This document shows positions 10,391-13,844 of a stretch of 64,000 nucleotides of DNA, one piece after another; the first letter of the stretch is position 1; the number at the start of each line of letters is the position of its first letter. The stretch is from Gammaproteobacteria bacterium. Lineage in GTDB: Bacteria; Pseudomonadota; Gammaproteobacteria; Eutrophobiales; Eutrophobiaceae. Location of the stretch: NCBI GenBank assembly GCA_965243105.1, contig CBDEUC010000003.1, positions 972,793 through 1,036,792 of the forward strand, given 5' to 3'. The translations under genes were made by a program, and so were the position numbers. The notes below the pieces were generated by a model. The model was not told the DNA's origin. It ran no database searches and worked only from the letters and a program-made list of their open reading frames with translations.

Positions 10391-11257
10391 TCAGGCCGGT
10401 TTCTCTCCAAGCGAGGTTGCCTTACGAGTATTGCCGTGGGCACTGTGTGGAGTACGCAGCACGCCATCGACAGATTTTTCCAGTTCGCGGATTTCATCCG
10501 CCAGCTTCACCGCGGCTCTCAGGGTTTCATGCCCGGCAGCAACGAGAGGTACGTATCGCTCCGCTTCCTTGACCATGAAGCAGCCCTTCGTGGTTAACTT
10601 TGCCACTGACTCTACAATACCCAGCGCGGCGATTGCCTTGGCGACCGAATAAGGGTTTGCAAACTGTGTCGCGGCAACCACGTCTTCTGCCTCTGCCACC
10701 AGCCGCGGCATCTCCAGTGTTTCCCCGAGCTTGATCTCGGACACCACCTTGTCCAGCGCGACCTGTAAAAAACGCGTGACGCCGGTGACCGCGTGCACCT
10801 TGATCACGTCGGCATTAAAGAGACTCATCTCGCTTGGGTCGAGGAACTCGCGCCGTGCACCGATCATGGGATCGCAGGGTAAAACGATAAAGCCCTGGTT
10901 ATCAGCAACCTTGAAAATCTTGTTGCCATCATCGTCCTTGCCTATGAAGGCTTTTTTCGAAGGGCCGTCGGAAAGCGTGATCGAGGCAAGACCTTTTTCA
11001 GAAAAAGTATCGCGCGCCTGGGTCGGACCCGGTAATGCCGCATTGGGGCTGCTGATAATAACAATGTCGGGTTCATATCCAATGATATCTTCCACGATCG
11101 CTGAGCAGGATTCCGGGTCCAGCTTGGCACCACTCGTATAACCACGTACTTCAAGGTCGTCGCGGTCTGCTCGCTCATCAAGAATAAGATCAAGCAGGGG
11201 TGCGGCCCCGATACAACCAAACTTTGCAACTGCAATCTTTACAATACCTTCGGACAT
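10391..11257 (-). CDS. Homolog of F420-dependent methylene-tetrahydromethanopterin dehydrogenase (Mtd family, archaeal type)
   Basis: 288-aa ORF with the blocks LLDLILDERADR, SSPNAALPGP, MIGARREFLDPSEM and FNADVIKV. These match the conserved blocks of methanogen Mtd as I recall them. Confidence 0.7.
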   Translation of the reverse strand: MSEGIVKIAVAKFGCIGAAPLLDLILDERADRDDLEVRGYTSGAKLDPESCSAIVEDIIGYEPDIVIISSPNAALPGPTQARDTFSEKGLASITLSDGPSKKAFIGKDDDGNKIFKVADNQGFIVLPCDPMIGARREFLDPSEMSLFNADVIKVHAVTGVTRFLQVALDKVVSEIKLGETLEMPRLVAEAEDVVAATQFANPYSVAKAIAALGIVESVAKLTTKGCFMVKEAERYVPLVAAGHETLRAAVKLADEIRELEKSVDGVLRTPHSAHGNTRKATSLGEKPA

Positions 11258-11281
11258 ACCTATCTCCGTTTTTAAATCAGT

Positions 11282-11695
11282 TTATCTTTCAGGGTGGATG
11301 ATATACGTGCTAATAAGGCCGTTCTCCAGTTCCACCCAACCAAAAAACGGCAATGCTTCACCTTCTTTTCCTACTACGTTTGCACGAAAGGCTCCAGACT
11401 TGCCGTCACAAACGACTGCATGCACCTTGTGCTTGAAACCGATTGCCTGCATTTCGCCAATACGTGCTGCAAGAAAATCCTCGATAGCCTGGCGTCCCTT
11501 CAAGGTATCTACGTTCCTCCTGCTATGACCATCATGTTCCCATACCTGCGTGTGTATCCATTCGGCGTCTTCATTAAAGGCCCGGGCGGCACTGCTGGCA
11601 TCAGCACTGTCGATATTATCGAAATAGGTATGCTGCAAAAGCCTGAGCAGGCCATCGCTATCAAGCAAAGACGCGCTCACGCTATCAGCTTCCAA
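11282..11695 (-). CDS. NTF2-like / SnoaL-like domain protein
   Basis: 137-aa ORF with a small alpha+beta cone-like composition. It overlaps the upstream LLM gene end by about 10 bp. Confidence 0.45.
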   Translation of the reverse strand: MEADSVSASLLDSDGLLRLLQHTYFDNIDSADASSAARAFNEDAEWIHTQVWEHDGHSRRNVDTLKGRQAIEDFLAARIGEMQAIGFKHKVHAVVCDGKSGAFRANVVGKEGEALPFFGWVELENGLISTYIIHPER

Positions 11696-12722
11696 GAACT
11701 TCCATCAGTACGGGCAGGGCCTCGGGTTGTGTCACCGAGCAGATCATCGTCTTTATATAATCGCCCTGTGCCAGCCATTTTTCCGCACGGGCTTGTATGT
11801 CCTTTTTGGTTCCAACCAGCGCAATCTCGTCCACCAGTTCATCTGGAATAAGCATCGTGGCCTCTTCCTTGTTACCGGCAAGGTAAAGATCCTGGATTTC
11901 CCCGGCGACGTCTGCATAACCCATCTTTGAGGCAAAATCCTTGTAGAAATTCTTTTTCTTTGAACCCATGCCACCGATATAGAGTGCCAGGAACTGCTTG
12001 ATTGGAAGACGGCACGCGTCAATGTCATCACCCATCTGCACGGTCACAAAAGGCGCAATATCAAAATCAGCAAAGGATTTTCCATTGCCTGCGATTGCAA
12101 ATCCTTTCTCCACATCTTTTGTGATGAGATCAATCTTGTCAGGACTCATGAACACCGGGAAAACACCGTCTGCCACTTCCCCGGAAAGACGCATGCCCGC
12201 AGGAGTAAATGAAGCGGTGTATATCGGCGTATTTTCTTCTGCGCTGAGGATGGACTTGAGGGGTTTACCCATGCCAATGGAGCCCGGGCCCTTGTAGGGA
12301 AGCTGGTATATCTCACCGTCATAGCTCACCGGCCCCTGGCGCGCAAAAATTTCCCTGACAATTTCTATGCACTCTCGCATGCGCTGCAACGGCTGGTCAT
12401 AACCAACACCGTGCCAGCCTTCGACGACCTGTGGACCCGATGCGCCAAGCCCGAGAATAAATCGACCACCGGACAGTTGTGACATGCTCATTGCAGTCAT
12501 GGCAGTGTTGGCAGGTGTTCTTGCCGGTGTTTGCATAATGGCAGTACCGACCTTTAACTTGCTTGTTTGTGCAAGGATCCAGGATGCCACGGTGACCGCG
12601 TCAGACCCGTAGGCCTCAGCAATCCACACCGAGTCCACACCCATGGCTTCCGCCTGGAGAATAAGATCCATTGGCGGGGCCAGGGTCTTTCCCGAGTATC
12701 CAAGAAGTAGTCCTAGTTTCAT
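11685..12722 (-). CDS. LLM-class (luciferase-like) flavin/F420-dependent oxidoreductase
   Basis: 345-aa ORF with the bacterial-luciferase TIM-barrel signature and the GGMGS..NFY region. It lies 3 bp downstream of tgt. Confidence 0.75.
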   Translation of the reverse strand: MKLGLLLGYSGKTLAPPMDLILQAEAMGVDSVWIAEAYGSDAVTVASWILAQTSKLKVGTAIMQTPARTPANTAMTAMSMSQLSGGRFILGLGASGPQVVEGWHGVGYDQPLQRMRECIEIVREIFARQGPVSYDGEIYQLPYKGPGSIGMGKPLKSILSAEENTPIYTASFTPAGMRLSGEVADGVFPVFMSPDKIDLITKDVEKGFAIAGNGKSFADFDIAPFVTVQMGDDIDACRLPIKQFLALYIGGMGSKKKNFYKDFASKMGYADVAGEIQDLYLAGNKEEATMLIPDELVDEIALVGTKKDIQARAEKWLAQGDYIKTMICSVTQPEALPVLMEVLGS

Positions 12723-12725
12723 TTA

Positions 12726-13844
12726 TCAGCTCACGTTTCGTTTTCTCGTCGCAGATCTTGATGAATAGAAATCATCCACAAAACCATCGAAATTATTAGC
12801 CTCTATCGCTTCTCGCATACCGGCCATCAGCGAATGGTAATAATGTATGTTGTGCAAGGTATTGAGTCGCGCCCCGAGGATTTCAACTGTCTTGTCCAGG
12901 TGATGCAGGTAGGCCCTTGAGTAATTCCTGCAGGTGTAACAGTCACAGTTCTCGTCCAGGGGCCTGTCACTGTTCCGGTGCACAGCGTTCCTGATCTTTA
13001 TAACACCAGTTGATGTAAAAAGATAACCATTACGGGCATTGCGGGTGGGCATGACACAGTCAAACATGTCTATACCCTGGCTCACGCCTTCCACCAGGTC
13101 TTCAGGTGTTCCGACACCCATCAGGTAGCGTGGCTTATCGCTCGGCATCAGGGCAGCCGTGAACTTCAGCATGCGGTCCATTTCCTCGATGGGTTCTCCC
13201 ACTGACAGGCCACCGATGGCATAGCCGGGAAAATCAATCTCCATGAGACCTTTTAACGAGGCTTCCCGTAACTCCTCGTACATTCCGCCCTGGATGATGC
13301 CAAACAGTGCACCTGCATGGTCACCGTGGGCCTCCTTGCTTCTCAATGCCCAGCGTAAGGACAGCTGCATCGAGTCTTCAGCTTCCTTTTCGCTCGCCGG
13401 GTAAGGCGTACACTCATCGAATATCATGACGATATCGGAATCCAGGCTGTGCTGAACGGAAATAGCCTCCTCGGGACCGAGAAACACCTTTGAGCCATCC
13501 ACGGGAGATCGAAAGTGCGCACCTTCTTCGGTGATTTTTCTCGAGTCCGCCAGGCTGAATACCTGGAAGCCACCGGAGTCCGTCAGGATCGGCCATTGCC
13601 AGTTCATGAACCCATGAAGGCCACCGTGCTGCTCAATAATTTCCGTTCCGGGTCGAAGCATCAGGTGAAAGGTATTTCCGAGAATGATCTGGCTACCCAG
13701 TTCCCGCAGCTCTTCCGGGGTCATGGCCTTGACCGTGCCATAGGTTCCCACGGGCATGAATACCGGGGTCTCCACCACGCCGCGAGGAAAAGTCATGCGC
13801 CCGCGTCGCGCCTTACCGTCGGTGTTTAACAGGTCAAAATTCAT
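12726..13844 (-). CDS. tgt: Queuine tRNA-ribosyltransferase (tRNA-guanine transglycosylase)
   Basis: N-terminus [39 protein letters not shown], and the C-terminal zinc site CxCxxC...H ([16 protein letters not shown]). Confidence 0.9.

Follow-up and report, generated by a model that had tools for sequence, protein, structure and literature searches.

This work concerns a 64,000-nucleotide stretch of a gammaproteobacterial contig (CBDEUC010000003.1, positions 972,793 to 1,036,792; hereafter the window), in which a homolog of Mtd, the archaeal-type dehydrogenase that acts on methylene-tetrahydromethanopterin (methylene-H4MPT) and depends on F420, closes a run of five open reading frames (ORFs) that begins with the queuosine genes queA and tgt. 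Judged by family models, residue conservation and substitution pattern, this gene encodes a genuine Mtd that belongs to a large gammaproteobacterial clade with Thorarchaeota as its sole close relatives, and its context in related genomes links it to coenzyme F420. We propose, with a probability of roughly 0.6, that the protein moves hydride between a methenyl/methylene-tetrahydropterin and F420, and that enzymes such as the LLM-class oxidoreductase encoded next to it draw on the F420H2 so formed. What makes the locus interesting is the clade of bacterial Mtd proteins, together with its Asgard affinity and the linkage to fbiC; the tgt operon adds little, its placement being lineage-specific. 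The five ORFs lie head to tail on the minus strand at 10391-15084, in the following order:

14047..15084, minus strand: queA, tRNA preQ1(34) S-adenosylmethionine ribosyltransferase-isomerase, first in the run (NF001140, 502.7 bits, cutoff 324; PF02547)
12726..13844, minus strand: tgt, tRNA-guanine(34) transglycosylase of the ordinary bacterial type (TIGR00430, 545.2 bits, cutoff 306.75; PF01702, 554.5 bits)
11685..12722, minus strand: LLM-class oxidoreductase of the TIGR03559 (Rv3520c) type (PF00296, 226 bits; TIGR03559 'F420_Rv3520c', 354.7 bits, cutoff 335)
11282..11695, minus strand: SnoaL/NTF2-like small protein (PF12680, 32.1 bits, cutoff 27; PF13577, 24.7 bits)
10391..11257, minus strand: Mtd homolog, archaeal-type F420-dependent methylene-H4MPT dehydrogenase family, 288 aa (PF01993, NF002162)

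Family membership and conservation of Mtd

The window Mtd matches PF01993 with 340.4 bits (E 1e-101, cutoff 25) over profile positions 1-273 of 274, which bears out the family assignment made in an earlier note on this DNA, and it also passes the NCBIfam equivalog model NF002162 (335.4 bits, cutoff 297). It aligns with the solved Mtd of M. kandleri (1qv9) at E 3.9e-65 and is 50% identical to the Methanocaldococcus enzyme. In 50 archaeal Mtds, 66 alignment columns reach a conservation of at least 95%; the window protein is identical at 60 of them and departs at six (I35L, P91A, L155H, A204S, A250V and K280A); over 36 bacterial Mtd sequences, 51 of the same 66 columns are also at least 95% conserved. 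The blocks LDLILDERADR, SPNAALPGP, GARREFLDPSEM and NADVIKV, which the earlier note took for hallmarks of methanogen Mtd, are indeed present in the translation and map to these archaeal-conserved columns. Between the window and a 96%-identical homolog (locus L001), the ratio of nonsynonymous to synonymous substitution (dN/dS) of the Mtd gene is 0.05, at a synonymous divergence (dS) of 0.48. On these sequence criteria, the window protein is a true member of the Mtd family that has been maintained under strong purifying selection with its core unchanged. Since the core is unchanged and the enzyme maintained, the same chemistry as in archaeal Mtd would be the default expectation.

Distribution and origin of bacterial Mtd

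A search of 5.8 billion proteins yielded 3213 Mtd homologs at E < 1e-10. The best 120 of these are 56-96% identical to the window protein and nearly all 288 aa long; where their source is named, they come from uncultured Gammaproteobacteria and already bear the label methylene-H4MPT dehydrogenase from NCBI or JGI. Genomes sampled at one per species gave 128 loci, and the best 80 of these included 30 contigs from bacterial metagenome-assembled genomes (MAGs) and 10 from Thorarchaeota, the rest being distributed among methanogens, Archaeoglobi, TACK and other archaea. The gammaproteobacterial MAGs that carry Mtd were recovered from marine, freshwater, glacier-stream and sludge samples. No plasmid-borne Mtd was matched in PLSDB. 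Four of the MAG contigs with a gammaproteobacterial Mtd (L001, L028, L031 and L002) are titled 'uncultured Enterobacteriaceae', 'Klebsiella pneumoniae' or 'Planctomycetota'; judging by the genes on these contigs and their synteny with the window, the titles are probably wrong.

In a neighbor-joining tree of 86 Mtd sequences (200 bootstraps), Bacteria and Thorarchaeota form a clade in 200/200 replicates, and the bacterial proteins are monophyletic within it save for one long-branch contig attributed to Thorarchaeota (L035). The window falls into a sub-clade with L001, L002, L081-L083 and L086 (199/200), and its sister is L003 (197/200), whose Mtd is 64% identical to that of the window. As for L035, a contig of Thorarchaeota B65_G9, its nesting among bacteria could reflect a binning error, a long-branch artefact or a back-transfer.

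Mtd is widespread in archaea and has been reported as vertically inherited there (PMC9982363), and a 2021 review of F420 lists the enzyme for archaea only (PMC8498797). Because the sole close relatives of the bacterial proteins are Thorarchaeota, and because Mtd is otherwise archaeal and vertically inherited, the simplest history would be a single old transfer from a Thorarchaeota-like (Asgard) archaeon to the ancestor of a large gammaproteobacterial clade.

Gene context linking Mtd to F420

The locus L003 (2492-8394), from a proteobacterial MAG, contains a cofD-cofE-cofC-fbiC cluster with a co-directional mtd 139 bp downstream. The assignments rest on TIGR01819 for cofD (291 bits, cutoff 257), PF01996 for cofE and PF01983 for cofC, and fbiC encodes a fused FO synthase (822 aa). 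This is the sole bacterial locus seen with Mtd attached to F420 biosynthesis genes. The closest homologs of its FbiC are found on gammaproteobacterial MAG contigs, beside cofC, a PNPOx-fold protein and an LLM. The MAG from which L003 derives (B75T3L11) has a second Mtd copy (L033:4716-11233), which follows genes of the xanthine dehydrogenase (XDH) family (FAD_binding_5, MoCoBD) and lies near an IS110 transposase; an XDH-ECH-cofC-fbiC-PNPOx arrangement similar to this setting was noted in L093-L096.

Closer to the window, an FrhB/FpoF-like gene lies directly downstream of Mtd in seven loci (L002, L081, L082, L083, L086, L087 and L089). Its product, of 419-493 aa, joins a 2x[4Fe-4S] domain at the N terminus to an FrhB domain and reaches 208-217 bits with PRK09325. 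Thorarchaeota also have an FrhB/FpoF-like gene about 3.5 kb from Mtd, and at 25-31% identity to the in-clade bacterial proteins a co-transfer with Mtd finds no support. The third line of context is the neighboring LLM, which passes the cutoff of the F420-associated subfamily TIGR03559 and is predicted to use F420. The name 'LLM class F420-dependent oxidoreductase' is given to its orthologs from Oceanicoccus, Parahaliea and Zhongshania; the closest named homologs (P0358, P0378 and P0386, 61-63% identity) belong to the cultured species Oceanicoccus sagamiensis, Parahaliea mediterranea and Zhongshania guokunii, which hints at a host of the Cellvibrionales kind. Taken together, the L003 cluster, the TIGR03559 LLM and the FrhB/FpoF-like gene of the relatives support a tie between Mtd and F420. 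The suggestion in the earlier note that the genes may be a laterally acquired F420 module is supported by this context and by the grouping of Mtd with Thorarchaeota only.

The window itself and L001 lack both the FrhB-like gene and creD, which follow Mtd in all other in-clade loci, and tblastn gave no match to the FrhB-like gene in either of the two. We conclude that the FrhB-like gene was deleted in the window's sub-lineage. Since purifying selection persists between the window and L001, the window Mtd would either work without the FrhB-like neighbor or have its partner encoded elsewhere.

Proposed function

In the scheme that we favor, queA-tgt would be an ordinary queuosine operon, to the 3' end of which one gammaproteobacterial lineage added F420-type redox genes of lateral origin. 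In an aerobic heterotroph, the Mtd reaction would most plausibly run in the oxidative direction and yield F420H2, which could then be used by F420H2-dependent enzymes such as the neighboring TIGR03559 LLM. In the relatives, the FrhB/FpoF-like iron-sulfur flavoprotein encoded just 3' of Mtd might offer a further route for re-oxidising F420H2. The SnoaL-like gene would be one of several interchangeable occupants of the slot upstream of Mtd. The data show family membership, conserved residues, phylogeny, synteny and, in the sister lineage L003, the link to F420 biosynthesis genes; we infer cofactor use in this organism, a substrate of the H4MPT type, the reaction's direction and a flow of F420H2 towards the LLM.

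Several observations weigh against this scheme. The cof and fbi genes are absent from the 64-kb window and from every in-clade locus examined. None of the best 120 homologs found with the L003 FbiC as query lies on the window's contig or on other in-clade contigs, a result that is not conclusive. Within ±10 kb of about 36 bacterial Mtd loci, no genes for H4MPT biosynthesis and no fae, mch or fhc were recognised, and it is from residue conservation alone that we infer an H4MPT-type pterin as the substrate of the window Mtd. Nor is the Mtd of Thorarchaeota embedded among Wood-Ljungdahl genes within ±5 kb. The FrhB-like partner, which is the proposed electron outlet, is missing from the window. 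Finally, the tight packing with tgt has been kept through saturated synonymous divergence, which leaves some room for a functional tie to that gene.

The alternative that best survives, though we consider it a good deal less probable, is that the fold has been kept and the partners have changed: Mtd might act on methylene-tetrahydrofolate, for example, and/or use scavenged Fo or NAD(P) in place of F420, in a host that may be without H4MPT and possibly without F420 synthesis. Such a change of partners would suit the lack of H4MPT or one-carbon (C1) pathway genes beside the ~36 bacterial loci, the stand-alone position of Mtd in most lineages and the fact that F420 genes were not found for the window's clade, either in the in-clade loci or through the best 120 FbiC homologs. 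It fits less well with the high conservation of the archaeal invariant columns, with the mtd that adjoins cofD-cofE-cofC-fbiC in L003, and with the F420-type proteins, the TIGR03559 LLM and the FrhB/FpoF-like protein, that accompany Mtd in the clade.

Linkage to tgt and the question of queuosine

The earlier note had placed tgt, the LLM gene, the NTF2-like gene and the Mtd homolog in one co-directional series; all four are on the minus strand and pass their family cutoffs, and queA lies upstream, 169 bp from the listed tgt ORF. The spacing given there also holds. The tgt stop and the LLM start are 3 bp apart; the LLM and SnoaL genes, for which an overlap of about 10 bp had been stated, overlap by 11 bp when TTG 11695 is taken as the SnoaL start, a start at GTG 11680 leaving 4 bp between them; and 24 bp with a GGAG ribosome-binding site separate the SnoaL stop from the Mtd start. 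Two further starts allow a choice. The queA family model begins at residue 7, and the true start may be an internal ATG, while the listed tgt ORF extends to GTG 13877, with ATG 13844, where the earlier note has the gene end, being the better fit to the family model. Because the gap between tgt and the LLM gene is only 3 bp, the LLM-SnoaL-Mtd genes are likely co-transcribed with tgt. A LuxR-type regulator lies upstream of the run, and on its 3' side a convergent GT4 glycosyltransferase gene ends 13 bp from the Mtd stop. A promoter and terminator scan of 9800-16500 returned fewer sites than shuffled sequence and was uninformative on operon boundaries. An Rfam scan for preQ1 or other riboswitches gave a tRNA-Leu as its sole match.

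The order queA-tgt-LLM...Mtd was found with full context in six loci, namely the window, L081 (Mtd 84% identical to that of the window), L082 (73%), L086 (69%), L087 (72%) and L089 (69%). A metagenome scan with the LLM alignment gave 5 loci, of which L087 and L089 were informative. In all five relatives the series continues into the FrhB-like gene, and synonymous sites are saturated between the loci. The linkage is confined to one clade, in which Mtd is at least 69% identical, and the entire 15-20 kb region is collinear there, with LuxR upstream and ALS, YiiD, hydantoinase and MbnB-like genes downstream. Because the whole neighborhood is collinear, the adjacency of tgt appears no better conserved than its background. 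About 29 other bacterial Mtd loci (54-64% identity) are without tgt, this LLM or FrhB and fall into three synteny groups:

Group 1: HiPIP/FHA/GlcD-GlcF/acyl-CoA ligase
Group 2: ATP-grasp/transglutaminase/HpcH aldolase beside thiL-nusB-rib
Group 3: guanylate cyclase/VWA

At high-GC loci, longest-ORF calls favor antisense ORFs over Mtd, and synteny there was taken from tblastn and precomputed gene calls. In one high-GC gammaproteobacterial group (L092:9543-10867, L006, L017 and L036), a HiPIP gene lies directly upstream of Mtd. Orthologs of the LLM at 69% and 65% identity (L097 and L099) adjoin neither tgt nor Mtd. Linkage to tgt, the absence of which from relatives would in the earlier note have pointed to accidental juxtaposition, is therefore conserved in near relatives and absent in distant ones.

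Within the clade, the interval between the LLM and Mtd genes holds 0, 1, 3 or 5 genes. It is empty in L001, L081, L082 and L089, which are accordingly without SnoaL; SnoaL orthologs lie directly upstream of Mtd in L002, where the contig ends before the LLM position, and in L087. In L086 the slot is filled by three small ORFs, among them a divided RdhA-like gene. L087 has five genes there, for an acyl-CoA ligase, a 68-aa product, an uninterrupted RdhA-like protein, Ldh_2 (on the opposite strand) and SnoaL. Because this interval is a variable slot, the conserved units are, on present gene order, tgt-LLM and (SnoaL-)Mtd-FrhB and not a single fixed operon. A single-sequence AlphaFold model of the SnoaL protein (pLDDT 48.5) was too poor for a fold search; its three helices followed by strands are compatible with the fold. 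The RdhA-like protein of the slot is a 321-aa iron-sulfur protein of the RdhA/QueG superfamily, intact in L087 (7578-8543) and divided between two overlapping ORFs in L086 (5458-6421), the latter by either a frameshift or an assembly error. It was considered as a possible QueG and rejected, with 108 bits on the reductive dehalogenase model and 61 on QueG (cutoff 200), both below the cutoffs.

The queuosine precursor genes of the window lie outside the operon:

28452..30856, minus strand: queE-queD-queC, preQ0 synthesis (TIGR04508, 350 bits; TIGR03367, 145.6 bits; TIGR00364, 241 bits)

By these matches, an ordinary queuosine precursor pathway is present in the window. The absence of queF, queG and queH from the window, as the earlier note had it, was confirmed among the ORFs scanned; the note had overlooked queE, queD and queC. 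The cluster, with queE at 28452-29087 and queC at 30188-30856, adjoins a divergent gene of the xanthine/uracil permease family (27125-28447). At 364 aa, the queD product (29084-30178) is roughly three times as long as usual, and it contains three PTPS stretches.

The earlier note had further speculated that the genes downstream of tgt act on a pterin- or deazapurine-like molecule of the queuosine pathway. Spelled out, the idea would be that Mtd regenerates F420H2 and the LLM uses it to reduce an intermediate of queuosine synthesis, either preQ0 to preQ1 instead of QueF or epoxyqueuosine to queuosine instead of QueG/QueH; otherwise the enzymes would act on the tetrahydropterin CPH4. The arguments for it are the tgt-LLM gap, which stays at 5-38 bp in the five relatives despite saturated dS, the lack of queF, queG and queH in the window, and the presence of a member of the RdhA/QueG superfamily in the slot of L086 and L087. 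In bacteria, queF and queG are often unlinked to tgt, and the linkage seen here is restricted to one clade with general collinearity, while the ~29 other bacterial Mtd loci and the 65-69%-identical LLM orthologs are unlinked to tgt. The RdhA-like protein, better fitted to reductive dehalogenases than to QueG, stands beside an acyl-CoA ligase and Ldh_2. The LLM, SnoaL and Mtd proteins gave no match to the QueF, QueG or QueH models, and the archaeal conserved residues retained in Mtd argue against a new substrate. With the variable slot between the LLM and Mtd genes added to this, we regard a queuosine-linked function as improbable, and slightly more so the specific proposal that the F420H2-dependent LLM is a non-orthologous replacement for a QueG/QueH- or QueF-type reductase, with Mtd regenerating its F420H2. 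The placement beside tgt looks like a lineage-specific accident of gene order, with no sign of a queuosine role.

The LLM-class oxidoreductase and Mer

Mer and Mtd catalyse consecutive steps in methanogens (PMC8498797), and an archaeal C1 branch might have moved as a pair, with the LLM as an analogue of Mer and the two enzymes together interconverting methenyl-, methylene- and methyl-H4MPT. The LLM lends this some color, as its sole PDB matches at E < 1e-10 are Mer structures (8QQ8, 1Z69, 1F07 and 1EZW; best E 2e-21). On the Mer model TIGR03555, however, it reaches only 104.7 bits against a cutoff of 348.7. Mutagenesis of the M. jannaschii Mer has shown Glu6, Asp96, residue 178 and Phe233 to be important, and Val230 also lines the pocket (PMC11094777). 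The window LLM and three orthologs have Leu in place of Glu6, Gly in place of Asp96, Val at position 178, Gln for Val230 and Ala for Phe233, whereas one Mer from Methanomethylicia (L054) retains the Mer motifs FGLE, GAGD and LINAS. The low model score and the replacement of five active-site or pterin positions rule out the LLM as a Mer. Neither in Thorarchaeota nor in other bacteria does such an LLM stand near Mtd, and the slot between the LLM and Mtd genes is variable. A transferred C1 pair is accordingly about as doubtful as a role in queuosine synthesis.

Least probable of all is that the genes left after the loss of the FrhB-like gene are a functionless remnant on its way out, since the absence of FrhB-like and creD from the window and L001, which might suggest decay, is set against intact reading frames, a good ribosome-binding site and the low dN/dS of Mtd between these same two loci, both without FrhB.

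Other features of the window

Three further regions of the window were noted. At 32516-44937, a PfaC-like ORF of 2223 aa immediately precedes oleA, oleB, oleC and oleD and encodes ketosynthase (KS), KS-like and acyltransferase domains together with three FabA dehydratase domains; the same neighborhood has a HetI-type phosphopantetheinyl transferase and corresponds to a pfa/ole-type cluster for long-chain polyolefins. At 16447-24083, coiled-coil and Cys-Gly-Ser repeats abound in an ORF of 1630 aa, and neither this ORF nor the 179-aa and 730-aa ORFs that follow it matched a Pfam or NCBIfam family. At 425-5575, a homolog of MNIO (MbnB/BufB-like) maturases of ribosomally synthesized and post-translationally modified peptides (RiPPs) lies next to genes for a YiiD-type thioesterase and for a caprolactamase-like fusion of hydantoinases A and B (1217 aa). 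This trio is syntenic in L082.

Significance and comparison with known systems

In the literature, Mtd has counted as archaeal, with its place in methanogenesis and the C1 pathways related to it (PMC8498797). The sequences described here form a large clade of full-length and strongly conserved Mtd in Gammaproteobacteria, known so far from metagenome assemblies only. The NCBI pipeline already names these bacterial proteins, and we found no paper that discusses them; a literature search on bacterial Mtd, on F420 in Cellvibrionales and on H4MPT in marine Gammaproteobacteria turned up nothing specific. If the enzyme is active, aerobic bacteria would own an F420-coupled step on a tetrahydropterin C1 carrier, which could be an unrecognised route to F420H2 from formaldehyde-level carbon. 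The phylogeny also offers a clear example of a gene passing from Asgard archaea into bacteria. Should the LLM after all act in the queuosine pathway, no earlier deazaflavin-dependent step would be known in the synthesis of tRNA queuosine.

Compared with archaeal Mtd (EC 1.5.98.1; M. kandleri structures 1QV9 and 3IQE), the window protein is of the same family, matching PF01993 over its full length and passing NF002162, and is ~45-50% identical to the methanogen enzymes. Unlike archaeal Mtd, it occurs in an aerobic-type gammaproteobacterium and its gene lies outside any methanogenesis or Wood-Ljungdahl gene set. Methylotrophic bacteria use MtdA and MtdB, which are NAD(P)-dependent methylene-H4MPT dehydrogenases of a protein family unrelated to Mtd. 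If the host has an H4MPT pathway, Mtd would catalyse the same C1 oxidation step as these enzymes, with another hydride carrier; near the bacterial Mtd loci examined, neither mtdA or mtdB nor fae, mch or fhc was seen. The LLM and Mer have a luciferase-like TIM barrel in common and differ at the catalytic and pterin-binding positions. With respect to the bacterial cofD-cofE-cofC-fbiC cluster, mtd is the next gene in L003, while the window and the in-clade loci have no such genes. The FrhB-like protein of the in-clade loci resembles FpoF in its N-terminal 2x[4Fe-4S] domain.

The tgt operon itself has a familiar counterpart. In E. coli, tgt is co-transcribed with yajC-secDF, which are functionally unrelated to queuosine. 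The locus described here is similar to the E. coli-type queA-tgt-yajC-secD-secF operon in that both queA-tgt runs are followed by genes without a queuosine role, and differs from it in the passengers, which here are the LLM, SnoaL and Mtd genes, joined in the relatives by the FrhB-like gene, in the place of yajC-secDF.

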